Shown here: piece by piece, positions 1,158 to 13,476 of the stretch | Layout: each line of letters opens with the position of its first letter | How positions within the stretch are numbered: the first letter of the stretch is position 1 | From: Escherichia phage E20 | Direction: 5' to 3' (one strand) | Sequence record: OP745616 | DNA length: 64,000 nt | Program-made: the position numbers and the translations under genes | The notes under the pieces: generated by a model | Seen by the model: only the letters and a program-made list of their open reading frames with translations | Databases searched by the model: none | Told to the model about the DNA's origin: nothing

Positions 1158-1418
1158 ATGCGTAAAATTGCTATTGGATTCGGTTGTAGTGCTGTTACGG
1201 GCCTTATCGCTTATGCTGCCCACGTAATCTTGGGTATGTCACTGATTGACCTGACACCGGTCATGGTAGCTGCTATCGCAGCCCCACTATTTGGTATCGT
1301 AGTCTTTGACTTTAAAGCATTCAGCCGTGCTGCTGCTGAAGTAAGCAATCTAATCCTGGGCCGACTTGGACATCGTTCCTTTGGTTCTGGTAGTCTATGC
1401 CGACCTCATGGTCTGTAA
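1158..1418 (+). CDS. small hydrophobic (membrane) protein
   Basis: 86-aa ORF with two predicted TM segments (LIAYAAHVILGMSLIDL, VMVAAIAAPLFGIVVF); RBS-like aagaagg upstream. Confidence 0.45.
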   Translation: MRKIAIGFGCSAVTGLIAYAAHVILGMSLIDLTPVMVAAIAAPLFGIVVFDFKAFSRAAAEVSNLILGRLGHRSFGSGSLCRPHGL

Positions 1419-1435
1419 AGTATAAACTGATAGAT

Positions 1436-1463
1436 AAACCCCAGCATTGACTGGGGTTTTTTG
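1436..1463 (+). terminator. rho-independent terminator
   Basis: stem aaccccag/ctggggtt then tttt. Confidence 0.5.
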
Positions 1464-1479
1464 CATCTGGAGCCAGGAA

Positions 1480-1668
1480 ATGTATAAAGAGATTGCATTC
1501 TTCTCGTTCTTGTTAGGAGGGTTAATTGGTGCAGGAATTGTAGCTATTTCTAATACCTACTTTGGTTCTACTCCAAACTCTGTAACACAAACCCACAAGC
1601 ATGAATGTGAATTGAATATCCCTCGTAATCAAAACTGCGTAATGCAGTTCGTACCGGAGAAGAAATGA
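1480..1668 (+). CDS. small membrane protein
   Basis: ORF track frame 1447..1668; first ATG after the terminator at 1480 (MYKEIAFFSFLLGGLIGAGIV), hydrophobic N-terminus. Confidence 0.4.
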   Translation: MYKEIAFFSFLLGGLIGAGIVAISNTYFGSTPNSVTQTHKHECELNIPRNQNCVMQFVPEKK

Positions 1669-1850
1669 AACTTACCCAGTCCCAAGTAATATTCCTTCGC
1701 ATGGTTCAAGGTGGTTCTGCCACCAGCAACCGTAATAACAAAACCGCACAGTCTCTTAAGAAGCTGGGCTTAGTACAGTTCAATACTGGTCTTGGGTGGT
1801 CATTAACCCCTACCGGAGTAATTCAACTCAACGAATTAAAAGGTAACTAA
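1665..1850 (+). CDS. hypothetical protein
   Basis: 61-aa ORF with ATGA start/stop overlap with upstream gene, suggesting translational coupling. Confidence 0.35.
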   Translation: MKLTQSQVIFLRMVQGGSATSNRNNKTAQSLKKLGLVQFNTGLGWSLTPTGVIQLNELKGN

Positions 1851-2177
1851 ATGAAAACTTTAATTGCTGTTGCTGTAGTAGCTTTATCAGTTCTGTCATT
1901 CGGTGCTCAAGCATCTAGTCGTGCAACCTTGCTGGAAGCTGCTGCTGATTACAAAGCTAATAATACAAACTTTGTGAACCAGGGTTACTTCATGGGCATG
2001 GTTACCATGGGGGTGGAAGCAGGAAAGAACTGTGTACCTGACGATATGAAGTTAGGGCACATTTTTGACAGAGTGGCTTCTATTATTCTGTATGACCGAA
2101 AGGTTAATGCAATGAAAGTACCTTCAGACATGGTTCTGTTAGCGATTGATACAGCGTATCCCTGCGTTAAATCTTAA
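1851..2177 (+). CDS. secreted/periplasmic small protein with cleavable signal peptide
   Basis: N-terminus MKTLIAVAVVALSVLSFGAQASS is a classical Sec signal peptide (AQA-S cleavage motif); two Cys in mature part. Confidence 0.5.
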   Translation: MKTLIAVAVVALSVLSFGAQASSRATLLEAAADYKANNTNFVNQGYFMGMVTMGVEAGKNCVPDDMKLGHIFDRVASIILYDRKVNAMKVPSDMVLLAIDTAYPCVKS

Positions 2178-2211
2178 TTAGTAATTCCATTAACTTTAGG
2201 AGAGTAAGTAA

Positions 2212-3264
2212 ATGGCGAGCATTGACTCCTTGACTGTATGTAATACACGCCAAGCCCGTAACTTTATTATCCGTGCCTTACAAGCAGGTAACGTACCGTT
2301 CCTGACTTCATCGCCGGGCATGGGTAAATCTGCAATTATCCGTTCTGTTGCAGAAGAATTTGGCATGAAGCTGATTGACCATCGTCTATCTACTTCTGCC
2401 CCGGAAGACTTATCTGGTCTACCATTCCGTAATGGTGACCGTGCAGAGTTTATCCCTTTCGCTGACTTATTCCCTATTGAGGGGGATGAAGTACCGGAAG
2501 GTTATAATGGCTGGCTCCTGTTCCTTGATGAGTTCAACTCAGCTAAGAAAGAAGTAGTAGCTGCTGCATACAAACTGATTCTAGACCGTATGACTGGACA
2601 GAAGAAACTACATCCTAATGTGATGATTATCTGTGCCGGTAACAAAGCTACTGACCGTGCTATCGTTAACCCACTGGGTACTGCAATGCAGTCCCGTGTT
2701 GTCCACTTCGAAATGGAACTTAACTTCGACATTTTTGTTGAAGACGTAATGATTCCGCAAGAATGGGATGAGCGTCTGGTTGCATTCTTACATGCTAATC
2801 CAGGCTATCTGCATGACTTCGACCCTGCCCATAAGAACAAAACATTCTGTTGTCCTCGTACCTGGGACTTTGTTAACAAAGACCTCAAGAACCGACCAGA
2901 AGGTGCTCTGCCTGATGAAGATTCTATCTACTATGCAGGCCACGTTACTGCCGGTAAAGCTACAGAATTTGTTCAGTTCACCCAGGTATATAATCGTATG
3001 ATTACGATTGAGAAGGTAGTCAAAGACCCATTGGGCTGTGCACTGCCTGAAGATAATAACCTGTGTTGGGCTACTGTTAACCATCTGGCTAACAAGACTA
3101 CTGAAGATAACTTCGTTGATGTACTTAAGTACATTGAACGATTCAAAACGTTCACCCATAAGATTCTGTACTTCCGTACAGCGGGTAAAGCATTACCAGA
3201 AATTCAGGCTACTCCTGAATGGCGTAAAGCTGCTGCCAACATCTCTCGTTACATTCACGGATAA
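2212..3264 (+). CDS. AAA+ ATPase, MoxR-like
   Basis: Walker A SPGMGKSAI and Walker B LLFLDEFN; 350 aa; adjacent to VWA-type partner as in MoxR-VWA pairs. Confidence 0.7.
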   Translation: MASIDSLTVCNTRQARNFIIRALQAGNVPFLTSSPGMGKSAIIRSVAEEFGMKLIDHRLSTSAPEDLSGLPFRNGDRAEFIPFADLFPIEGDEVPEGYNGWLLFLDEFNSAKKEVVAAAYKLILDRMTGQKKLHPNVMIICAGNKATDRAIVNPLGTAMQSRVVHFEMELNFDIFVEDVMIPQEWDERLVAFLHANPGYLHDFDPAHKNKTFCCPRTWDFVNKDLKNRPEGALPDEDSIYYAGHVTAGKATEFVQFTQVYNRMITIEKVVKDPLGCALPEDNNLCWATVNHLANKTTEDNFVDVLKYIERFKTFTHKILYFRTAGKALPEIQATPEWRKAAANISRYIHG

Positions 3265-3271
3265 TCACAAC

Positions 3272-4447
3272 ATGAACCAGATACCTCAGCACACACTTAG
3301 TGATGAACAACTCATGCGCGAGTATGACCGTATTCAGGCCCAAGCTTTCCTAGGCAAGTCTGCTGCGTTTTTTGGTTCATTGCTGTGTAGTCTTAAGTTC
3401 TCATGGAATCGTGAGGATTGCCCCACTGCATGTACTGACGGAATAGAACTCCATTTCAACCCAGACTTCTTTGTCTGGATGTGCCCTGATGCAAGAGAAA
3501 CAGTGCTAATGCACGAACTCTGGCATGTGGCATATCTACATGGCATCCGTTGTGGAAGCCGTGACCCGGAAGTCTGGAACCAGGCATGTGACCACTTCAT
3601 TAACCTTCAGTTAGAAGAAGACGGTTACAAGTTCACTGGTATCGACAAAGGCATTTGCAAAGACCCTCAATATAAAGGATGGGTTGAAGAAGACATCTAC
3701 GATGACCTGATGAAGAACCCTCAGAAAAGGCAGAAGCCGTCAGGGGGTGCTGGAGCAGGTCTTGCTGGCGACATGAAAGCTCCCTCTTCGGGGCAGTCCC
3801 AGGGTGCTGTTGTCAACAACGTAGTACGTGCAATGCAAAGCCAGAAGATGGCTGGTGGAATAATGCCCGGTAAAGGTGCTGGTCGTATGGAAGAGGTTAT
3901 TACCCAATTCCTTAAACCAGTAGTTCCATGGCAGGAAGTCCTGCTGAACTTCTTTACCGACATTGATGACACACACTATACGTGGGCCAGACCTAACCGT
4001 CGTTTTACTGACATCTATCTACCATCACTGGAAGATGATGAAGGTCGTTTACGACACCTAGCTTACTTTGAGGATGTATCTGGTTCTATTAGTAATTCTG
4101 ACTCTCTGCGTTTTAACTCAGAGGTTGCCTACGTTAAGAGCCAGTTCAATCCTAAGAAGATGACCCTTATTACCTTCGACGATATTATCCAAGAAGAAAT
4201 AGACATCACTGAAGAAGATACTTTTGAAGAGATTAAGATTACTGGTCGTGGTGGTACAAACCTTGAACCAGTGCGTGAATGGATTATTAAGAATAAGCCA
4301 ACCGCTGCAATCATATTCTCCGATATGTATGTTCGTCCTATGGAAGAATTACCATTTGATATCCCTATCATCTGGTGTGTTCTGAATAATCCCAATGCTA
4401 CCGTACCTTTTGGGGAGGTAGTTCATATCCCTAAAGGAATGAAATAA
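3272..4447 (+). CDS. putative metallopeptidase-like (HExxH) / VWA-like partner of the AAA ATPase
   Basis: ORF frame 3038..4447; ATG at 3272 directly after upstream stop; HELWH zinc-binding-like motif; overall resembles DUF2201/CoxE-type proteins paired with MoxR. Confidence 0.5.
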   Translation: MNQIPQHTLSDEQLMREYDRIQAQAFLGKSAAFFGSLLCSLKFSWNREDCPTACTDGIELHFNPDFFVWMCPDARETVLMHELWHVAYLHGIRCGSRDPEVWNQACDHFINLQLEEDGYKFTGIDKGICKDPQYKGWVEEDIYDDLMKNPQKRQKPSGGAGAGLAGDMKAPSSGQSQGAVVNNVVRAMQSQKMAGGIMPGKGAGRMEEVITQFLKPVVPWQEVLLNFFTDIDDTHYTWARPNRRFTDIYLPSLEDDEGRLRHLAYFEDVSGSISNSDSLRFNSEVAYVKSQFNPKKMTLITFDDIIQEEIDITEEDTFEEIKITGRGGTNLEPVREWIIKNKPTAAIIFSDMYVRPMEELPFDIPIIWCVLNNPNATVPFGEVVHIPKGMK

Positions 4448-4953
4448 TGGTTGTTAATGGTAATTCTCTATACCGTTCATCTCAATTGCTGGACATCCCA
4501 GACCATAAAGTATCCAAGCATGGTGTAAGTTATGGATTAGGTGAAGCCGGTTATGATATTCGTATCAAACAAGATATCACTTTCTATCGCTTATTCGGGT
4601 TGATTCCAATGGTGAAGACTGTCGATGCTGGGGTTGTTAAACGCCACTTCGGTAAATTCGCATTGGCTTCAGCAATTGAGAAGTTCAACATGTCCCCATC
4701 CTGTGTAGCTATCGTTCACGATAAGTCTACATGGGCAAGACGTGCATTATCAGTGTTCAATACTGTAATAGAACCAGGATGGAAAGGGTATCTTACTCTC
4801 GAACTGGTCTATCATGGTCGTAAGAAACTGCATATCCCGGCTGGTGCTGGGATAGCTCAAGTATTATTTCATCTGGTTCAAGAGCCTGCTAATTACAATG
4901 GCAAGTATCAGAACCAGGAAGACAAACCAGTATCTGCTAGACCTTCAAAATAA
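4447..4953 (+). CDS. dcd: dCTP deaminase/dUTPase-fold protein
   Basis: 168 aa; motifs GYDIRI and VIEPGWKGYLTLEL resemble the dCTP deaminase beta-barrel signature; ATGA overlap with upstream gene. Confidence 0.5.
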   Translation: MVVNGNSLYRSSQLLDIPDHKVSKHGVSYGLGEAGYDIRIKQDITFYRLFGLIPMVKTVDAGVVKRHFGKFALASAIEKFNMSPSCVAIVHDKSTWARRALSVFNTVIEPGWKGYLTLELVYHGRKKLHIPAGAGIAQVLFHLVQEPANYNGKYQNQEDKPVSARPSK

Positions 4954-4983
4954 AAGGCTATCCAGATTAATCAAGGAAATAAC

Positions 4984-5169
4984 ATGTCTGTATTTCAAGT
5001 AACTCCTGCTGACAGTACCCAACGTAAAACTATTGTTGCAACTAACGTAGTAGATGTAGATGAAACTCCGGCTGGTGCTGTAATTCATCTCATTGATGGG
5101 CGAACTGTAACTGTAAAAGAAAGCTACCGTTCGGTACGCGGTTACATTCGTAAAGCTTTAGCTGAGTAA
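4984..5169 (+). CDS. hypothetical protein
   Basis: 61-aa ORF with RBS aaggaaataac upstream and terminator downstream. Confidence 0.4.
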   Translation: MSVFQVTPADSTQRKTIVATNVVDVDETPAGAVIHLIDGRTVTVKESYRSVRGYIRKALAE

Positions 5170-5181
5170 GTAGCTGCCTAA

Positions 5182-5210
5182 ATAGCCCAGCATAGTTGGG
5201 CTATTTGTGA
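5182..5210 (+). terminator. rho-independent terminator (weak)
   Basis: stem atagcccag/ttgggctat then ttgtg. Confidence 0.35.
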
Positions 5211-5242
5211 AGAAACTAACTCAACCCCACATAGGAACTATC

Positions 5243-5503
5243 ATGGAATCTTTAGCAGCAATCCTTATTCTGTTATTTGCACTAGCTGTATACCTTATCC
5301 CTACTATTATTGCTTTTGCACGAGGCCATGCCTCTAAGTGGGGAATTGGTGTACTCAATATTGTATTAGGCTGGTCTTTGGTCTTCTGGGTAGTAGCACT
5401 GATTTGGTCACTGTCTAATAAAGGACAGTCTCAGACTACAATCGTTAACGTTGGTAGTGGGAACCAATACAACGTGTCTCAAACGAGCCAGTCTGATAAG
5501 TAA
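5243..5503 (+). CDS. superinfection immunity (Imm-like) small membrane protein
   Basis: ORF frame 5207..5503; ATG 5243 with RBS aggaac; sequence YLIPTIIAFARGH...IGVLNIVLGWSLVFWVVALIWSL matches the two-TM Imm_superinfect pattern. Confidence 0.55.
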   Translation: MESLAAILILLFALAVYLIPTIIAFARGHASKWGIGVLNIVLGWSLVFWVVALIWSLSNKGQSQTTIVNVGSGNQYNVSQTSQSDK

Positions 5504-5577: not shown

Positions 5578-5606
5578 AAGCCCACCTAACCCGTGGGCTT
5601 TTTTAA
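5578..5606 (+). terminator. rho-independent terminator
   Basis: stem agcccac/gtgggct then ttttttaa. Confidence 0.5.
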
Positions 5607-6004: not shown

Positions 6005-6447
6005 TGCGTATCCCATTCCTAAGAAAAAGGGAACGAAATCCTGTTCTTTATAATAAAGGCATAGAGGATGAGTACGAACTTAACCGTAAGGCCCGTTCCT
6101 ACGCAGCAAAATTATTAATGGGGGCTACCAACCCTGATAGATTACTGGACTTTGTTTTCGAACAAGTCTTTATCATATACAGCTTAGCTATGTCTGCTGG
6201 TTCACAAGAAGTAAGTGATAAGGCAAGAGATGCTCTCTGTATGCTCCGTAAAGAGTATGAAGCCCTCATGTATGAAGACTTGTACTCCTTTAAAAAAGAA
6301 ACCGCTGTAGCGTGTTCTGTGGCTCTTACTGAAGGTATAGCAGTATTACAGGAACTACCACGTAGTGAGTTTAAACTGGTATATGTTCAGGCCAAGAGGA
6401 TTACAGAAAGCCGTAGTGGTATTACCAACTATCTAAGGTCATTCTAA
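6004..6447 (+). CDS. hypothetical protein
   Basis: 147-aa ORF; ATGA start/stop overlap with upstream gene. Confidence 0.45.
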   Translation: MRIPFLRKRERNPVLYNKGIEDEYELNRKARSYAAKLLMGATNPDRLLDFVFEQVFIIYSLAMSAGSQEVSDKARDALCMLRKEYEALMYEDLYSFKKETAVACSVALTEGIAVLQELPRSEFKLVYVQAKRITESRSGITNYLRSF

Positions 6448-7391
6448 TGATTAAGGCAACTGTCATTGCAGATTCCGTTCATCATGCAACGGGTACTCGT
6501 ATTACTACCTTTGAATTGGTCTATCCCCGATTCATTCACAGTGAGTTTATGACCCACCGTGTATTCAACCGAAATGCTTCAAGTAGTCGTGCTATCCCTA
6601 CTTCTAAGTTCATCGAACAAGTTCGTAATGAACCAGTGATGCCAAGTCACTGGGGCAAGAACCAGAAGGGTATGCAGGCATTTGAGGAACTGTCCGAAGA
6701 CCAACGTAGTGATGCAATCTTTATCTGGAACCAGGCTGCGTCAAGTGCTGCTACCTATGCGGAAATGCTTCGTCGTGGACAAGTTCATAAGCAGATTGTT
6801 AACCGTATTCTGGAACCATTCACACATATCCGTGTAGTGGTAACTTCAACTAGCTGGGCTAATTTCTATGGCTTACGTGACCATGAAGATGCCCAACCAG
6901 AGATTCGTGAATTAGCTCAAGCAATGCGTAAGGCTCATAATGAAAGCACTCCAAGAGCACTCCCACAAGGGGAATGGCATTTACCGTATATTGCTCATAT
7001 TGATCGTGTCGGGGCTTATAATTACTGCAAACATCAGCGAATTACTCGTGATGAACCAAGTAGTGAAGAAGTGTATGGCTTACTTCTTAAGGTAAGTGCT
7101 GCTCGTTGTGCTCGTGCTTCTTACAACAATTTTGAAGGCCGTCCTTCTACTATTGAAGAAGACTTAGGATTGTTTGCTAAGTTAGTAGAGAACCAACCTA
7201 TTCATGCATCCCCTACAGAACACCAGGCAACTCCTATGCTGTTCGGTGATAAGTTCATTAACAACCAGAACCCATTAACCTGGGAACAGGGTGTTACTTC
7301 AATGGATCGTGAAGGTAATCTGTATTCAGGTAACCTGTTAGATTTCATCCAATTCCGTAAACTAATCCCCGGAGAAACAATTACAGAATGA
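6447..7391 (+). CDS. thyX: flavin-dependent thymidylate synthase (ThyX-like)
   Basis: 314 aa; motif EFMTHRVFNRNASSSRAIP resembles the ThyX RHR-x7-S signature. Confidence 0.5.
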   Translation: MIKATVIADSVHHATGTRITTFELVYPRFIHSEFMTHRVFNRNASSSRAIPTSKFIEQVRNEPVMPSHWGKNQKGMQAFEELSEDQRSDAIFIWNQAASSAATYAEMLRRGQVHKQIVNRILEPFTHIRVVVTSTSWANFYGLRDHEDAQPEIRELAQAMRKAHNESTPRALPQGEWHLPYIAHIDRVGAYNYCKHQRITRDEPSSEEVYGLLLKVSAARCARASYNNFEGRPSTIEEDLGLFAKLVENQPIHASPTEHQATPMLFGDKFINNQNPLTWEQGVTSMDREGNLYSGNLLDFIQFRKLIPGETITE

Positions 7392-7624: not shown

Positions 7625-7630
7625 ACCTAA

Positions 7631-7657
7631 GACCTCCTCCGGGAGGTCTTTTTTTGG
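7631..7657 (+). terminator. rho-independent terminator
   Basis: stem gacctcc/ggaggtc then T7 run. Confidence 0.55.
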
Positions 7658-8415: not shown

Positions 8416-10983
8416 ATGTTAGTTGCAGATACTAATCAATCAGCCACTTCAGCGACACTGGGTGGCAAAGAAGCAATCGCCTTTGGCATCTCTGATGACC
8501 CGGCATTCTTTCACGTATTAAGTACTTCCTTGTATAACAACCCTACTCTGGCAGTAGTCCGTGAGACTATCTGTAACAGTTGGGATGCCCACATTGAAAC
8601 AGGTAAGACTGATACACCTATCCGTATTACCATTGATACTGACAACTTTATTACCTTCCGTGACTTTGGTAACGGAATCCCGGATGAACTCATTGGTTCC
8701 ATTTACGGTGTCTATGGTGCATCCACTAAGAAGTCCAACAGCAGTGTTACTGGTGGCTTTGGTCTGGGATGTAAATCCCCATTCGCTTATACAGATAGCT
8801 TCCAGGTTACTTCATGGAACCAAGGAAAGATGTCTGTGTATAACGTAGCTAAGGCTGCAATTGAGAATGATGGTAAACCAGGTATTGTTCCTATTGTTAC
8901 TGGTATTCCTACTGAGGAATCTGGTCTGGAAGTTAAATTCCAGTTAGGTAAGCACGACGTAAATACCTTTGTGCATTACATCACATCAATTGTGTTTAAC
9001 GGTGAAATTAAGGCCGAGCTTAGTCTTCCCAAATTAATTCGTGAAGAAACAGGTAATAGTATTCAACAAGGTGACTACACGCTACTGAATACATTAGGTA
9101 TGTCATTTGAACCTGGTTCGTATGATATGTCTGATAGCTGGTATCAAAGCTATATGGGTAGCAGTAACATCTTTGTTCGTTACGGTAACGTAATGTACCC
9201 AATAGTATCCAGCCCAGCTAGTGAAGAAGCTGTAGGTCTTATTCTCAACTTCATGAATATTATTGGTGCTGACACTTTAGTAGTTCAGGCTGCACCAGAT
9301 ACCTTAGCTATTGCCCCTAGTCGTGAAACCCTGTCTAACCAGAAGCTAACTGACGATGGTATTACTGCTCTATGTGTAGATTTAGTAGACCGTATGGAGA
9401 AAGAGATTAAGGCTAAGATTCCTGAAGCTATTAAGCAGATTGAAGAATACGCCTCTGAATCTTCTACTCAATATTGGGAATACCCATCTTTCCTGGGTGC
9501 TGTTACAGATAGAACTGTTCAACGCTATATGTCCTCCAGTTTGTGGGCTAAGCAACGTAAGCATCATATTAAGCACTGGCGTAATCTATCCAATAAGGCA
9601 TTACTAGCTCGCCCTGAGTATGCAGGTCTTAAAAAACTGTATAGTAAAGCTATGAGTGCTCTTAAGGATACTCGTGCAGATGGTACAAGATACCCATTCC
9701 AGGAATTAGTATACCGGCATCTGCACTTACCTCAGCTTGCTGCTTTAAAAGCCACTGGTATTAAGTGGTCTGGTTACATAATGAACCAAGGTTATAGTGT
9801 TGACCTGGTGAAAGGTAAACTTACTGACTACTTTAAGATAGGTTATAACTCCCATCTAGGTATTGGTATTTTCACTACTAAGAACGTTGTAGTTACTCGA
9901 CGTTTATCCGACTGTGCAGTCTCTTTCGCATACTTCCCTGAATACAGTAAAGGTGACCTGGAGCGTACAGCTTTTGTTCACGTTGTTAGTCCTAAGAAGG
10001 GAGAAGCAGAAAAAGCTGTAGCTAAGTTCACTGCTATGGGTTATCGGGTTATTAACCTTACTCAATATAATGAGTGGGACAAGCCAACTAACCTCCGCAG
10101 AGAACAAGCTAAGATAGCTGCTGAGAAACGTGCTAAGACGATAGCTGCCAATAAAACCAAAGCAGGAGGTAAAACTAATGCACTGGTTTCATTGAATGCA
10201 GTACTTGGTACTAACCCTGTACGAGATAAAAGTGGCGATTGGGTATCTAAGCCGTACATTGACGGGGGATTTGCTGACCCAGCACGCCATGAGAAATACG
10301 GTTTTGTTGAGGTAGAACAGCCTAAGTACTACGTACTAGCCAATCAGGTTGGTTCTGGTAGTCCTGTAACTGCTCGAATTGGAACCATGTGGAAATGGTA
10401 CGAGTTATCTGATGAGATGAAAGCAGAGACTGTTGTCTGTCGCAATCAAATCGAGGCTAACAAGGCCAAACGACGTGGTGCTATACACATTGATGATGTT
10501 CGTTTTAACGAACTGATGTCAGTTATTACCAGTAAAGTTTTCAAGAAATATGTTACTGAACACCGTATTGGTATTCTGGAATATGTAGGACTTGATGACA
10601 GAGAATATTGGGAAATCCTTGATATTCTGGGGCTAACCTTCAAACCATTACAGAATCTGATTTTTAAACCAGAGTATGAATGGGCATATGACTTTCTAAG
10701 GAATCGACCACATGGCTACAAAGAAAAACTTGTTGAAATGGGTTGTATTAAGTCAGTGGATGACTTAGAGCCATATACAATGATGGTTAATCCACGTAAT
10801 CATAAGTACTTTGAAATGCTTAATCAATACAAAGGATTATTCCGTTATAGCTGGGGTGCTGGTGACATACTACAGAGTCTGGACTTAGGTAGTTTAGTTA
10901 AACATCTCAAGAGAAATCCAGAGGATATTCCTGGGTTTAAGTCCCTCTACCGTAATCGTCTAAATAAACTGAAAGGTAAATAA
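8416..10983 (+). CDS. rIIA: rIIA-like protein (GHKL-type ATPase N-terminal domain)
   Basis: 855 aa; N-terminal motifs VRETICNSWDAH, RDFGNGIP, GGFGLGCKSPFAYTDSFQVTS match the conserved T4 rIIA ATPase-like block. Confidence 0.75.
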   Translation: MLVADTNQSATSATLGGKEAIAFGISDDPAFFHVLSTSLYNNPTLAVVRETICNSWDAHIETGKTDTPIRITIDTDNFITFRDFGNGIPDELIGSIYGVYGASTKKSNSSVTGGFGLGCKSPFAYTDSFQVTSWNQGKMSVYNVAKAAIENDGKPGIVPIVTGIPTEESGLEVKFQLGKHDVNTFVHYITSIVFNGEIKAELSLPKLIREETGNSIQQGDYTLLNTLGMSFEPGSYDMSDSWYQSYMGSSNIFVRYGNVMYPIVSSPASEEAVGLILNFMNIIGADTLVVQAAPDTLAIAPSRETLSNQKLTDDGITALCVDLVDRMEKEIKAKIPEAIKQIEEYASESSTQYWEYPSFLGAVTDRTVQRYMSSSLWAKQRKHHIKHWRNLSNKALLARPEYAGLKKLYSKAMSALKDTRADGTRYPFQELVYRHLHLPQLAALKATGIKWSGYIMNQGYSVDLVKGKLTDYFKIGYNSHLGIGIFTTKNVVVTRRLSDCAVSFAYFPEYSKGDLERTAFVHVVSPKKGEAEKAVAKFTAMGYRVINLTQYNEWDKPTNLRREQAKIAAEKRAKTIAANKTKAGGKTNALVSLNAVLGTNPVRDKSGDWVSKPYIDGGFADPARHEKYGFVEVEQPKYYVLANQVGSGSPVTARIGTMWKWYELSDEMKAETVVCRNQIEANKAKRRGAIHIDDVRFNELMSVITSKVFKKYVTEHRIGILEYVGLDDREYWEILDILGLTFKPLQNLIFKPEYEWAYDFLRNRPHGYKEKLVEMGCIKSVDDLEPYTMMVNPRNHKYFEMLNQYKGLFRYSWGAGDILQSLDLGSLVKHLKRNPEDIPGFKSLYRNRLNKLKGK

Positions 10984-10987
10984 TCTG

Positions 10988-13018
10988 ATGAAAATCGAAT
11001 TGATTTCTATCATCGCACTGGCAGTTGACAGTCGAAACCTTACACTGTGGAAGCCTGATGGCTCCACGGTTGTATATCCACAGAGTGACCCACGGGTTGC
11101 TCGTATTGTATCTGAAGCACAGACTAAAGGTCTGGGCACTATCCATGACCAAATAGAAGTAAACATTGCACCAGAAGTAGAGTTACGTACTGAATATCTG
11201 GAAGCAGAGAAGAACACCAACGGATTCGTCCGTTTCTTCAAGGTAGCTAAGGCTAAACTCATAGAGTTCTTCGAGGATGGTACAAGTGACCAACCAGCCC
11301 GTACCATCCCGGATATTAAGCTGGGTAATCCTACGAAAACTCTGGTGTCTAAAGCCATGGATACCTTCCTGGCTGTTCAGGCTAATGAACCAGAAGTAAC
11401 AGTAGCAGACGGTTGTTACGATAAACGTGACAATCTAATGTGGGTTACTGGCTGGGATAAAGACCATAACCATCCTGCACTGGTTCGTTTTATTAACGAC
11501 GTACTAGGTTGGGGTTATGACCATACTAACCGTATTCTTAGACGGGAATGGCCTATTGGAATTCGTGCAGTATCTGATGATGAAATGGGGGAGTTTGCTA
11601 AACAAGCCCAGAACATCAAAGGTGTACACGTTGTATTTACCAACCGTGAAGAAACACCATTGCCTTATGAGGAAGTAGTTAAAACTACGAACCAGGATAA
11701 GCTGGCTGCTGCTTCTGAGAAGTTAGCTGCATTAGGTGCTATCAGTACCGATAATGCTAACTTCCACACTGATGTGAAGGAAGATGAGGTAGTTGTTGCT
11801 GTTACCAACAATGGGGTTATCCCTGGAGTTGAGAACCTGCAACGTCACCTGCGTCAATCTGCCAAGCTAAAAGACTACAAGGGCTTTACCAAGTTCCTTG
11901 AGCGTCTAGCTCCGGTTATTAAAGACCGTTTGCACTCAGTGGAAGACCTGATGAAGTTCATGGAAACTGCTGAACTGCCTATTGCTGATGATGGTTCCAT
12001 CCTGTTCCTGAAACGCCTTAAGTTCAGAGGCGAAGAAAATGGTAAACGTGTATTCGTTGACTGTCACTCAGGCAATATCCGTCAATGGGTAGGCTGTAAG
12101 GTACAGGTACGAGAAGACCTGGTAGACCCTGACCGTCGTCAGGACTGCTCTAACGGTCTGCATGTGGCATCCATGAGTTACATCCGTACCTTCGGTGGTA
12201 ACGTAACTATTCTTGGTAAAGTAGCACCAGAAGATGTATTTGCTGTTCCTGAGTACAACACTAATAAGATGCGTGTAGCTGCGTATCACATTATTGCTGA
12301 ACTTCCAGAAGAGGAACGTATTAACGTTAACAATGGTATCTACCTGTCTAAGACAAAAGTGGGTAAGAAATTACTTAATGATGCCATCGTTGGGAACCAT
12401 AGTTCACCTACCACACTTGTTATGGTTGGTGGTCACTATGGTACTAACCTCAAATACACCAATCTCTCATCTGGTTCTGTAGAACAATTCCGTACAGTTG
12501 CTAACAAAGAAGCACTGAATATGGAAGAGTCACTCAATGAAGCTGTAGCTGCTGAACCAGTGAAGGCTACTGACCTTAAACCTATTGTTAATAAGGCCCC
12601 TACCGTGAAAGAACAAATTCAGGAACTGGTAAAAGAGTTCCTCACTGCAACAACCCCAGAAGATAAATTAGCTGCTGCTGACCTTCTGGTAGAACTGCGT
12701 TCCAAAGCCAGAAAGCCTTGGGGTGCATTCGATGTAGGTAGTGATGTAGTAGCTAAGATTGCTGATGTACGTGCAACCTATACAGCTAAGCCTGTTGGCA
12801 AACCTGTGAAGGTTAAAGCCACCAAGTCTAAGTCAGTATCTAAGGGTAAGAATGCAGACATCATTCGTTCCTGGCTCAATGATACTGGTATGTCTGATTA
12901 TCAGAAAGCCCACTCCATTCATGACCTGAAACGTGCAGCTAAGAAGTCATATGCTGCTATGGGTCTTACTGAAGAAGAGTGCAAAGCCATTGATAAGCTG
13001 AAGCACCACCTTAAGTAA
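10988..13018 (+). CDS. rIIB: rIIB-like protein
   Basis: 676-aa ORF immediately downstream of rIIA homolog (conserved rIIA-rIIB synteny); no diagnostic motif verified. Confidence 0.45.
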   Translation: MKIELISIIALAVDSRNLTLWKPDGSTVVYPQSDPRVARIVSEAQTKGLGTIHDQIEVNIAPEVELRTEYLEAEKNTNGFVRFFKVAKAKLIEFFEDGTSDQPARTIPDIKLGNPTKTLVSKAMDTFLAVQANEPEVTVADGCYDKRDNLMWVTGWDKDHNHPALVRFINDVLGWGYDHTNRILRREWPIGIRAVSDDEMGEFAKQAQNIKGVHVVFTNREETPLPYEEVVKTTNQDKLAAASEKLAALGAISTDNANFHTDVKEDEVVVAVTNNGVIPGVENLQRHLRQSAKLKDYKGFTKFLERLAPVIKDRLHSVEDLMKFMETAELPIADDGSILFLKRLKFRGEENGKRVFVDCHSGNIRQWVGCKVQVREDLVDPDRRQDCSNGLHVASMSYIRTFGGNVTILGKVAPEDVFAVPEYNTNKMRVAAYHIIAELPEEERINVNNGIYLSKTKVGKKLLNDAIVGNHSSPTTLVMVGGHYGTNLKYTNLSSGSVEQFRTVANKEALNMEESLNEAVAAEPVKATDLKPIVNKAPTVKEQIQELVKEFLTATTPEDKLAAADLLVELRSKARKPWGAFDVGSDVVAKIADVRATYTAKPVGKPVKVKATKSKSVSKGKNADIIRSWLNDTGMSDYQKAHSIHDLKRAAKKSYAAMGLTEEECKAIDKLKHHLK

Positions 13019-13033
13019 TAGCCTGTTCAAATG

Positions 13034-13064
13034 GCCTCACTTATAATAAAGTGAGGCTATCTTT
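13034..13064 (+). terminator. possible terminator (weak U-tract)
   Basis: stem gcctcac/gtgaggc with 10-nt loop then tatcttt. Confidence 0.3.
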
Positions 13065-13080
13065 GAAGAGGAAATAAGCT

Positions 13081-13476
13081 ATGTCTAAAGTATTCAGAAG
13101 TAATCGCAAAGCAACTGATGAAGACATCATTCGTATGAATGCTGTTGGTCTGTCCCTCGCAACTATCGCTAAGACGTTGGGGGTTCACCCCACTACGGTT
13201 ACTTTGCGATTGCGTTCTCTAAACATTGAACCAGCCGACACACGTCGGACGTTCATGGAGAATGTACTCCGTCCATTACCAACCCATGTGGCAGATTGGC
13301 TTTCAGAACAAGTTGGTCCTAAGTACGAGATTCGCTCATACGTAAGAGACTTGATTCTGGAGGCATATAATAATCGCCACCTTAACCAAGAGAGTGAGCA
13401 TGACAAGTTCATCCGTTTGTACGCTGGCAAAAACCGAAGCCTGGTTCAAGAAGGTAGTACCGAATCCAACGAGTAA
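13081..13476 (+). CDS. putative HTH DNA-binding protein
   Basis: 131 aa; helix-turn-helix-like segment LSLATIAKTLGVHPTTVTLRL. Confidence 0.4.
   Translation: MSKVFRSNRKATDEDIIRMNAVGLSLATIAKTLGVHPTTVTLRLRSLNIEPADTRRTFMENVLRPLPTHVADWLSEQVGPKYEIRSYVRDLILEAYNNRHLNQESEHDKFIRLYAGKNRSLVQEGSTESNE

Follow-up and report, generated by a model that had tools for sequence, protein, structure and literature searches.

The gp24/gp25-type gene pair of an N4-like Escherichia phage encodes an AAA+ ATPase and a zincin-like VWA protein that may act together on a host protein

We found that two adjoining genes of Escherichia phage E20 (record OP745616; the 64,000-nucleotide stretch that was analysed is referred to here as the window) are, judged by their sequences, the orthologues of gp24 and gp25 of phage N4, the first encoding an AAA+ ATPase of the MoxR/midasin/dynein type and the second a protein that joins a zincin-like domain to a VWA domain. 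The two proteins most likely form one machine. Our leading reading of what this machine does, tentative and at somewhat less than even confidence, is that of a remodeller-protease, driven by ATP, whose target lies outside the virion and is probably a host protein. The pair itself is already known: these are published, annotated genes that we have rediscovered, in a phage ~95% identical to sequenced isolates, and a preliminary description of this DNA was correct to state that what they do in a lytic phage has yet to be established.

Results

Identity and layout of the locus

The window belongs to a Gamaleyavirus (G7C/N4-like) and shares 92-97% nucleotide identity with Gamaleyaviruses. Both open reading frames were found on the plus strand at 2212 to 4447, where the preliminary description had placed them, and all coordinates below refer to that strand. 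The ATPase gene (from 2212) is followed by the VWA protein gene (from 3272), a dCTP deaminase (DCD) gene (from 4447) and an rIIA-like gene (HATPase_c_3; from 8416), an order that matches that of N4 (gp24, gp25, dCTP deaminase, then rIIA); strand and downstream dCTP deaminase are likewise shared, whereas the intergenic gap is 167 nt in N4 and 7 nt in the window. Gene 1 is ~61% identical to N4-type ATPases over 100% of its length, gene 2 is 60.8% identical to N4 gp25 over 98% of its length, and the Schitoviridae copies share ~50% identity between genera. In N4, gp24 and gp25 are Schitoviridae core genes, annotated as ‘Unknown’ or ‘AAA+ ATPase’ and as ‘vWFA domain’, respectively (PMC4193335; PMC7650795), and both are middle rather than late genes (PMC4193335). 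The preliminary description had missed this core-pair identity (PMC4193335; PMC7650795), as it had the precedent for the architecture in jumbo phages (PMC7824862), for which a pair of a MoxR ATPase and a vWA protein with an N-terminal metallopeptidase was reported in 2021. The neighbours of the pair in the window are nucleotide-metabolism and rII genes (dCTP deaminase, a ThyX-like gene and rIIA), not capsid genes.

Chance is far from explaining the pair, given Pfam E-values of 1e-54 and 1.2e-34 for the two families matched by gene 2 and thousands of homologues. A scan for sigma-70 promoters returned fewer sites than shuffled controls; such a shortage is expected for N4 middle genes, and we therefore claim no promoter. 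PADLOC gave no usable defence-model match (gene 1 had only a sub-threshold DolB hit, E 0.0044, with no matching stretch, and gene 2 had none), and NCBIfam matched neither protein.

Gene 1 encodes an AAA+ ATPase of the MoxR/midasin/dynein type

Gene 1 (2212-3264; 350 aa) starts 7 nt downstream of a Shine-Dalgarno-like AGGAGAG (2198-2204) that was read from the sequence. Its product matched the generic AAA family of Pfam (2.3e-6, 28.5 bits) and PHROG 1297, ‘ATPase’ (6e-134), and was modelled by AF2 with a pLDDT of 87.4. The Walker A motif, or P-loop, is SSPGMGKS (aa 33-40; 2308-2331), of which N4-like relatives keep G38, K39 and S40 without exception, and G36, G38 and K39 are found in at least 98% of 55 phage and bacterial sequences; the Walker B motif is LLFLDEF (aa 102-108; 2515-2535), with D106 and E107 invariant in N4-like relatives and D106 conserved in 98% of the wider set of 55. 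The sensor-1 residue Asn144 (2641-2643), also invariant, stands at the end of a strand (137-144) in the model. Two further residues are 100% conserved, namely Arg162 (2695-2697), whose position makes it a candidate arginine finger, and Arg216 (2857-2859), a candidate sensor-2 arginine in the helical lid. Taken over 43 N4-like relatives, the Walker motifs, N144, R162 and R216 are invariant or nearly so, and over the 55 phage and bacterial relatives the key residues, E107 excepted, are at least 90% conserved.

A PxDLxGLP motif (aa 64-71; 2401-2424; P64, D66, G69 and P71 96-100% conserved) opens a putative helix-2 insert, and by analogy with the H2 insert of NorQ (PMC13036017) this region would be expected to contact the VWA partner. 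The model places a β-hairpin (71-80) between strands 2 and 3, within an insert predicted at a pLDDT of only 53-68, and a short strand (131-133) ahead of strand 4, candidates for the helix-2 insert and the pre-sensor-1 β-hairpin of MoxR-class ATPases.

The preliminary description had seen clear Walker motifs of a MoxR-like ATPase, a label stronger than the sequence warrants. The motifs are indeed there, and the closest solved folds (NorQ, CbbQ, midasin and dynein) are MoxR-lineage ATPases, with midasin the sole sequence match in the PDB; by sequence, however, the protein qualifies only as a generic AAA member, since AAA_5 scored 17.7 bits against a cutoff of 22 and the Pfam search returned no AAA_3 match. 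A bacterial homologue passed for AAA_5 (23.1) and stayed below the cutoff for AAA_3 (24.2 against 27). Because the Pfam thresholds for MoxR-type families are not reached, gene 1 is best called MoxR/midasin/dynein-like rather than a named member of a MoxR subfamily.

Gene 2 encodes a zincin-like domain and a VWA domain

Gene 2 (3272-4447; 391 aa) begins 7 nt after the stop codon of gene 1, and ends in a TAA that overlaps the start codon of the dCTP deaminase gene (ATG, at 4447). A mechanically called GTG start at 3038 was rejected: it would create an overlap of 227 nt with gene 1, and the alignments of homologues (390-394 aa) start at the ATG at 3272, one of them (391 aa) with 100% coverage. 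Pfam assigned the protein to DUF2201_N (1e-54) and DUF2201 (1.2e-34), and the AF2 model reached a pLDDT of 80.6. PHROG 1314 and many RefSeq records label the family ‘HNH endonuclease’; we discarded this label, as Pfam gave no HNH match and the two DUF2201 families cover the whole protein.

The N-terminal putative metallopeptidase domain (aa 17-253; 3320-4030; PF13203) carries HELWHVAYLH (3512-3541), a putative zinc-binding and catalytic HExxHxxxxH motif whose core HELWH (aa 81-85; 3512-3526) had already drawn attention in the preliminary description. In the model, HExxH falls in a helix (72-87) that is preceded by strands (42-62). Across 38 diverse sequences from phages and bacteria, H81, E82, H85, H90, D107 and E140 do not vary; H90, D107 and E140 are the candidates for the third zinc ligand. 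No PDB match was obtained when gene 2 was searched as a single sequence; zincins emerged only with a profile of the N-domain, and weakly, as the M48 peptidase 3c37 (E 9e-4), the minigluzincin MJ1213 (0.019) and HtpX and BepA (~0.1), and these weak matches are consistent in that all of them span the strand and the HExxH helix. Within the N-domain region lies a low-confidence linker rich in Gly, Ala, Ser and Pro (aa ~150-175; 3719-3796), with a pLDDT of 65-73 that drops below 50 at 158-164; that the ATPase might engage this segment would be speculation.

The C-terminal region (aa 263-386; 4058-4429) is a minimal VWA domain with the VWA α/β fold. Its MIDAS is complete, comprising DVSGS as read from the sequence (D268-x-S270-x-S272; 4073-4087), Thr329 (4256-4258) and Asp351 (4322-4324), and all five residues are invariant in 45 sequences. 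The domain spans ~125 aa and shows no long insertion in the model, only an 18-residue loop (314-331). The metallopeptidase and VWA similarity anticipated for this protein was thus borne out by domain searches.

The pair is co-conserved in phages, plasmids and bacteria

Homologues of the family number 21,768 cluster representatives (E up to 1e-3). Among the IMG/VR loci with enough upstream sequence, 68 of 69 keep the ATPase gene upstream on the same strand, in many cases with the two reading frames abutting or overlapping, and nearly all bacterial loci keep the same arrangement; the expectation that the two genes travel together in related phages was therefore upheld. We also found the ATPase/VWA cassette on 93 plasmids. 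On conjugative plasmids it adjoins type IV secretion genes, and a DUF3150 gene often separates its two members; in the conjugative plasmid bgla_4p it is flanked by a PRTRC cassette on one side and by VirB11/VirB3/VirB4/TraI/TraD genes on the other. This bacterial mobile-element cassette (AAA ATPase, DUF3150, DUF2201) encodes counterparts of both proteins in unchanged order (26-33% identity), but its context is one of conjugation and PRTRC genes, whereas the window pair sits among phage genes.

The DUF3150 gene (~310 aa) occurs between or beside the pair in 44 bacterial loci, and a profile built from these loci found no homologue in the window. In some IMG/VR contigs the pair is split by genes of ~220 and ~300 aa; these belong to no Pfam family, hhalign did not relate them to DUF3150, and the window lacks homologues of them. 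A search of the literature on DUF2201, DUF3150 and DS-28 (a predicted defence system, see below) turned up nothing informative.

Vequintavirus homologues are conditionally required

The only members of the family with a phenotype are those of Vequintavirus. In the HIDEN-SEQ preprint of 2025, bas54_0063 (MoxR ATPase) and bas54_0055 (metallopeptidase) of phage Bas54 were both non-essential on K-12, where ~94% of the TA sites in both homologues tolerated transposon insertion and plaque formation was normal, and both were depleted in the natural host E. coli CFE311 (log2FC -7.23, adjusted p 0, for bas54_0063; log2FC -2.20, adjusted p 0.009, for bas54_0055; doi 10.1101/2025.11.20.689424). Knockout of bas54_0063 left the phage sensitive to DS-28, a predicted defence system that had been cloned; bas54_0055 is not among the genes that the authors named as anti-defence, and a DNA helicase gene of Bas54 became conditionally essential on the host on which the MoxR gene did (doi 10.1101/2025.11.20.689424). 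As for other essentiality studies, a transposon preprint does not contain these genes, and CRISPRi-ART cites N4 for rII genes only.

We linked the window pair to these proteins through phage Bas48. Gene 1 matched bas48_0063 by BLASTP at 3e-21 over the ATPase and the C-terminal helical domain, and bas48_0063 is 98.8% identical in nucleotides to bas54_0063; gene 2 matched bas48_0055 at 4e-20 over the zincin and the VWA domain with its DVSGS, and bas48_0055 was equated with bas54_0055 by annotation, gene length and position rather than by direct alignment. The Vequintavirus loci have rIIA, rIIB and helicase genes downstream, as do the N4-like phages, but the pair is only ~23% identical to that of the window, its genes lie 3.6 kb apart on opposite strands and its peptidase has 486 aa.

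Discussion

Systems that combine a ring-type ATPase with a VWA partner offer further points of comparison. NorQ/NorD and CbbQ/CbbO, of the MoxR CGN subfamily, are 13-17% identical to the window pair; NorQ, at ~255 aa, lacks the additional C-terminal helical region of ~100 aa that the gene 1 model shows, and NorD and CbbO lack a peptidase domain and have a finger insertion that is not evident in the gene 2 model. Their clients are metalloenzymes, and for NorQD a ‘finger-in-pore’ and linker-stretching model has been proposed in which the VWA finger enters the ATPase pore (PMC13036017). Midasin/Rea1, a 550-kDa eukaryotic ribosome-assembly factor that has no protease, is a single polypeptide in which an AAA ring of six concatenated modules is combined with a MIDAS domain. 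The group 2.2 jumbo phages (PMC7824862) have the same two-protein arrangement; by tblastn the window proteins match the jumbo phages 121Q, GAP32 and Erwinia pEa_SNUABM at 23-30% identity, a distant relationship, and these are myoviruses whereas the window virus is a podovirus of ~72 kb.

The preliminary description had offered virion maturation, replisome maturation and host manipulation as possible roles, and of these the evidence favours host manipulation over virion maturation. A role as a chaperone-protease that folds, assembles and trims structural proteins was put forward for the pair of the group 2.2 jumbo phages, on the model of Acidianus two-tailed virus, whose tail development needs a MoxR-like ATPase (PMC7824862). 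The match of the window proteins to the 121Q, GAP32 and pEa_SNUABM lineage, as well as a second structural module near the gp24/gp25 homologues of roseophages (PMC4193335), would agree with it, and no prohead protease was noticed in the portion of the window that was inspected. We nevertheless consider this role unlikely: the N4 genes are middle and not late, the neighbours serve nucleotide metabolism and rII functions rather than the capsid, conjugative plasmids carry the same cassette yet build no virions, and the Vequintavirus homologues take insertions across most TA sites with normal plaques on K-12. A virion-only role is thus disfavoured by the 93 plasmids, the conjugation context on bgla_4p and the N4 middle-gene class, and the published jumbo-phage proposal is hard to square with the occurrence on plasmids and with the Bas54 results.

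A replication role, in which the pair would extract or degrade DNA-bound or cross-linked proteins in the manner of SprT or Wss1 with an AAA+ unfoldase, or would mature a replisome component of mobile elements, appears to us quite unlikely. It would suit the replication-side middle region (dCTP deaminase, ThyX-like gene and rIIA), a plasmid ‘DNA polymerase III subunit beta’ gene between the ATPase and DUF3150 genes, RNase H and Sipho_Gp157 neighbours in Acidobacteria, the conditional essentiality of the Bas54 helicase gene on the host that also makes the MoxR gene necessary, and the HExxHxxxxH spacing, which we take to recall small zincins; against this, Pfam detected no DNA-binding domain in either protein, neither Bas54 homologue is needed for replication on K-12, and neither sequence nor profile searches matched SprT or Wss1, the hits being M48 peptidases and minigluzincins. 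Very improbable, in our estimate, is a chaperone that inserts a metal or cofactor into a phage or host enzyme (as NorQD, CbbQO or CobST-like systems), with HExxH as a metal-binding module and not a protease. NorQ and CbbQ are indeed among the closest solved ATPase structures, a ‘porphyrin biosynthesis’ (CobS-like) ATPase family of PHROG matched weakly (E 9e-4) and a cyanophage ‘MoxR-like ATPase’ is 30% identical; however, the invariant catalytic Glu of HExxH suggests hydrolysis over mere metal binding, and no conserved metalloenzyme client gene accompanies the pair in phages and plasmids.

We therefore return to the host-directed remodeller-protease as the preferred reading. The gp24-type protein, an AAA+ ATPase of the MoxR/midasin/dynein type, would assemble into a hexameric ring, on which the VWA domain of the gp25-like protein would dock, as NorD does on NorQ and the MIDAS domain on midasin; because the minimal VWA domain has no obvious NorD-like finger in the model, the docking mode may differ. 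The MIDAS metal site might then grip an acidic residue of the target protein, ATP hydrolysis would remodel the target or the linker of the adaptor, and the fused HExxHxxxxH zincin domain would cleave the target. We infer that the two proteins form a complex, that the complex is proteolytic and that the target is a host protein, for example an immunity factor or another obstacle to the establishment of incoming mobile DNA.

Several observations run counter to this preferred reading. The Vequintavirus proteins are so distant from those of the window that their function may differ, and the Bas54 peptidase gene was far less depleted than the ATPase gene. Counter-defence genes are usually variable accessory genes. 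The pair, in contrast, is core across Schitoviridae of very different hosts, which is atypical for counter-defence and points to a conserved target. On a more specific version of the reading, which we regard as possible but rather doubtful, the N4 gp24/gp25-type pair would be a shared ‘establishment’ weapon, an AAA+-powered, MIDAS-guided zinc protease that breaks down an immunity protein of the host, or some other conserved host factor that stands in the way of incoming DNA. The range of such a weapon would take in N4-like podoviruses, rV5-like and jumbo myoviruses, and conjugative plasmids.

The pair is among only ~14 genes common to all N4-like phages, and the family, with members in phages, on plasmids and on chromosomes, exceeds 20,000 cluster representatives. 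Were the reading as a host-directed remodeller-protease true, it would account for a core gene set in phages considered for therapy, and would define an anti-defence machinery of a new type that phages have in common with conjugative elements; and should the ‘establishment’ weapon prove real, it would constitute a new mechanistic class of counter-defence, with DS-28 as its first known opponent.

Gene order and transcriptional context

The window derives from an N4-like podovirus of E. coli that belongs to the G7C-like group (Gamaleyavirus), and 55 sequenced phages (e.g. SP5M, PhAPEC7 and IME11) are 92-97% identical to the 2,236-nt span that carries the gene pair. Gene 1 (2212-3264, + strand, 350 aa, with AGGAGAG ahead of its start) and gene 2 (3272-4447, + strand, 391 aa) are co-directional, separated by 7 nt, and together fill this span. 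A mechanical ORF call would start gene 2 at GTG 3038, inside gene 1; we dropped it in favour of ATG 3272, since homologues of 390-394 aa align from there. Gene 2 is followed by a dCTP deaminase gene (4447-4953) whose ATG overlaps the gene 2 stop codon, reproducing the N4 order of gp24, gp25 and dCTP deaminase. The other neighbours encode a Hoc-like Ig-domain protein (187-1020), a divergent ThyX-like thymidylate synthase (6447-7391; Thy1, 6.5e-14) and an rIIA-like protein of 855 aa that contains a GHKL ATPase domain (8416-10983; HATPase_c_3), and the layout of the neighbourhood is that of N4 genes 17-33.

A sequence scan of the + strand returned strong terminator-like hairpins with T-runs at 1071-1093, 5578-5600 and 7629-7650. 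The first two, the nearest to the pair, bracket a ~4.5-kb block (genes 1158-5503) that holds it, and the pair and its neighbours therefore probably form one transcription unit. Sigma-70-like promoter matches in the window were fewer than in shuffled sequence.

This is an already described and annotated core gene pair, to which the window adds only the cross-links assembled here. Gene 2 is 60.8% identical to N4 gp25, and N4 genes 24 and 25, annotated in the 2006 GenBank record as ‘similar to S. coel. protein 1/2’, are both N4-like core genes and N4 middle genes (PMC4193335; PMC7650795).

An AAA+ ATPase paired with a zincin-VWA protein

The preliminary description had proposed a MoxR-type AAA ATPase paired with an HExxH/VWA-like protein; we found both genes, their domains and their pairing to be present, which supports that interpretation. 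For gene 1, the term ‘MoxR-type’ holds for the broad MoxR/midasin/dynein lineage, but the protein fits no named MoxR subfamily: generic AAA is the sole Pfam family to pass (28.5 bits), AAA_5 falls under threshold, and midasin AAA modules are the sole PDB sequence match. Gene 1 matches PHROG 1297 ‘ATPase’ at 6e-134. Its Walker A (G38/K39/S40) and Walker B (D106/E107) residues, the residues of a PxDLxGLP motif (aa 64-71), and N144, R162 and R216 are invariant in 43 N4-like relatives; all except S40 and E107 remain at least 96% conserved once bacterial and rV5-like homologues are added. Compared with NorQ, gene 1 has ~100 extra helical residues at its C-terminus.

In gene 2, Pfam confirms the HExxH/VWA assignment, with a DUF2201_N ‘putative metallopeptidase’ domain at aa 17-253 (1e-54) followed by a DUF2201 ‘VWA-like’ domain at aa 263-386 (1.2e-34). 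Across 38 diverse sequences from phages and bacteria, H81, E82, H85, H90, D107 and E140 do not vary; all five MIDAS residues are invariant in a set of 45 sequences. The N-domain profile matches M48 peptidase (E 9e-4), minigluzincin MJ1213, HtpX and BepA, the aligned part being the strand and HExxH helix, while the VWA domain, stripped down and with no obvious finger insertion, matches the NorD VWA and midasin MIDAS domains. Gene 2 is named ‘HNH endonuclease’ in PHROG 1314 and in many RefSeq and GenBank records (e.g. NC_070869.1, NC_070873.1); no HNH domain is detectable in it, and the label thus looks, on domain content, like a propagated annotation error.

Distribution on phages and mobile elements

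The gene 2 profile matched 21,768 cluster representatives at E ≤ 1e-3, and tblastn hits came from 696 phage records for gene 2 and from 806 for gene 1, with every N4-like group represented as well as jumbo phages, rV5-like phages and a cyanophage. The ATPase lies upstream on the same strand in 68/69 IMG/VR loci with enough upstream sequence; the reading frames abut or overlap in many, and one or two small genes intervene in others. In some phage lineages a conserved uncharacterised gene of ~220 aa or ~300 aa, depending on the group, sits between the two, and these intervening genes belong to no Pfam family and show no detectable relationship with DUF3150.

Cellular genomes repeat this arrangement, with a DUF3150 gene (~310 aa) conserved between or beside the pair in 44 loci; no DUF3150 homologue was found within the window, and a literature search on DUF3150 returned nothing informative. 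These bacterial loci, whose neighbours include VirB4-/VirB11-like ATPases, Sipho_Gp157 and RNase H, are mobile elements, and 93 plasmids carry the cassette. In bgla_4p, a conjugative plasmid of Burkholderia gladioli, it (9036-13137) lies between a PRTRC system and VirB11/VirB3/VirB4/TraI/TraD, and a gene annotated ‘DNA polymerase III subunit beta’ is inserted after the ATPase and ahead of the DUF3150 and VWA-peptidase genes.

Several records were unusual. Unlike the window, where both genes are intact, Escherichia phage U1G (NC_070872.1, 1501-3435) has its gp24-like gene split (106 aa and 224 aa) by a ‘Phage intron’ HNH homing endonuclease, and its gp25-like gene is called as two ORFs; split gp24-like genes also occur in Mimir124, pSb-1, NAN33P5 and Vibrio phage JA-1. 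Acinetobacter baumannii ‘plasmid’ pRBH2-3 (NZ_CP110465.1, 75 kb, the size of an N4-like phage) encodes both an N4-type RNA polymerase and the AAA/VWA pair; the record probably represents a phage genome, or an episomally kept phage, filed as a non-mobilizable plasmid. Over the MoxR gene, sixteen ‘Campylobacter phage’ records (MG0656xx, ~135-143 kb) share 96-98% identity with rV5-like phages of E. coli, and their host attribution looks doubtful.

Host-dependent requirement for the Vequintavirus homologues

Both proteins also occur in rV5-like phages, where bas48_0063 (‘MoxR ATPase’) matches gene 1 (BLASTP 3e-21 over 316 residues) and bas48_0055 (‘putative metallopeptidase’) matches gene 2 (4e-20) over both the zincin and the VWA domain. 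In contrast to the window, these genes are encoded on opposite strands with 3.6 kb between them, with rIIA, rIIB and a helicase just downstream. Phage MaxBurger is Bas54, and its bas54_0063 is 98.8% nucleotide-identical to bas48_0063. A HIDEN-SEQ preprint classed bas54_0063 and bas54_0055 as ‘Non-essential’ on K-12 (60/64 and 81/86 TA sites hit, respectively), but on the natural E. coli host CFE311 both were depleted (log2FC -7.23, adjusted p 0; and log2FC -2.20, adjusted p 0.009), as was the DNA helicase bas54_0068 (log2FC -6.32; doi 10.1101/2025.11.20.689424). The effect for the peptidase is modest, and these homologues are only ~23% identical to the window proteins. The depletion table (supplementary file 9, Data S6) is titled ‘resampling_K-12_vs_CFE303’, whereas its recorded command compares BW25113 with ‘311’.

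Proposed function

We reasoned that the two products probably work as a single ATP-driven machine, with the VWA/MIDAS domain as its likely adaptor and the zincin as its likely effector, because the catalytic and metal-site residues are intact in both proteins, gene order is strict, and NorQ/NorD and midasin offer close structural analogues, where the AAA+ ring is the docking site of a VWA domain and a linker comes under strain as ATP is hydrolysed (PMC13036017). For a pair of the same architecture in group 2.2 jumbo phages, Iyer et al. proposed that it takes part in virion assembly and processing (PMC7824862). However, the N4 pair belongs to the middle genes, the cassette resides on conjugative plasmids, which produce no virus particles, and the Vequintavirus homologues are dispensable on K-12 but required in a natural isolate; all three favour a target outside the virion, and we consider the assembly role unlikely. 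Remodelling of DNA or the replisome appears quite improbable, and cofactor insertion very much so.

We therefore tentatively prefer a remodeller-protease acting on a non-virion target, a reading to which we give slightly less than even weight; the most likely target is a protein of the host, perhaps an immunity factor. Notwithstanding, the pair remains ~50% identical among phages that infect Escherichia, Pseudomonas, Vibrio, Rhizobium and Roseobacter, and conservation this wide across very different hosts is atypical for counter-defence and suggests a conserved target, which might just as well be element-encoded or replication-linked.
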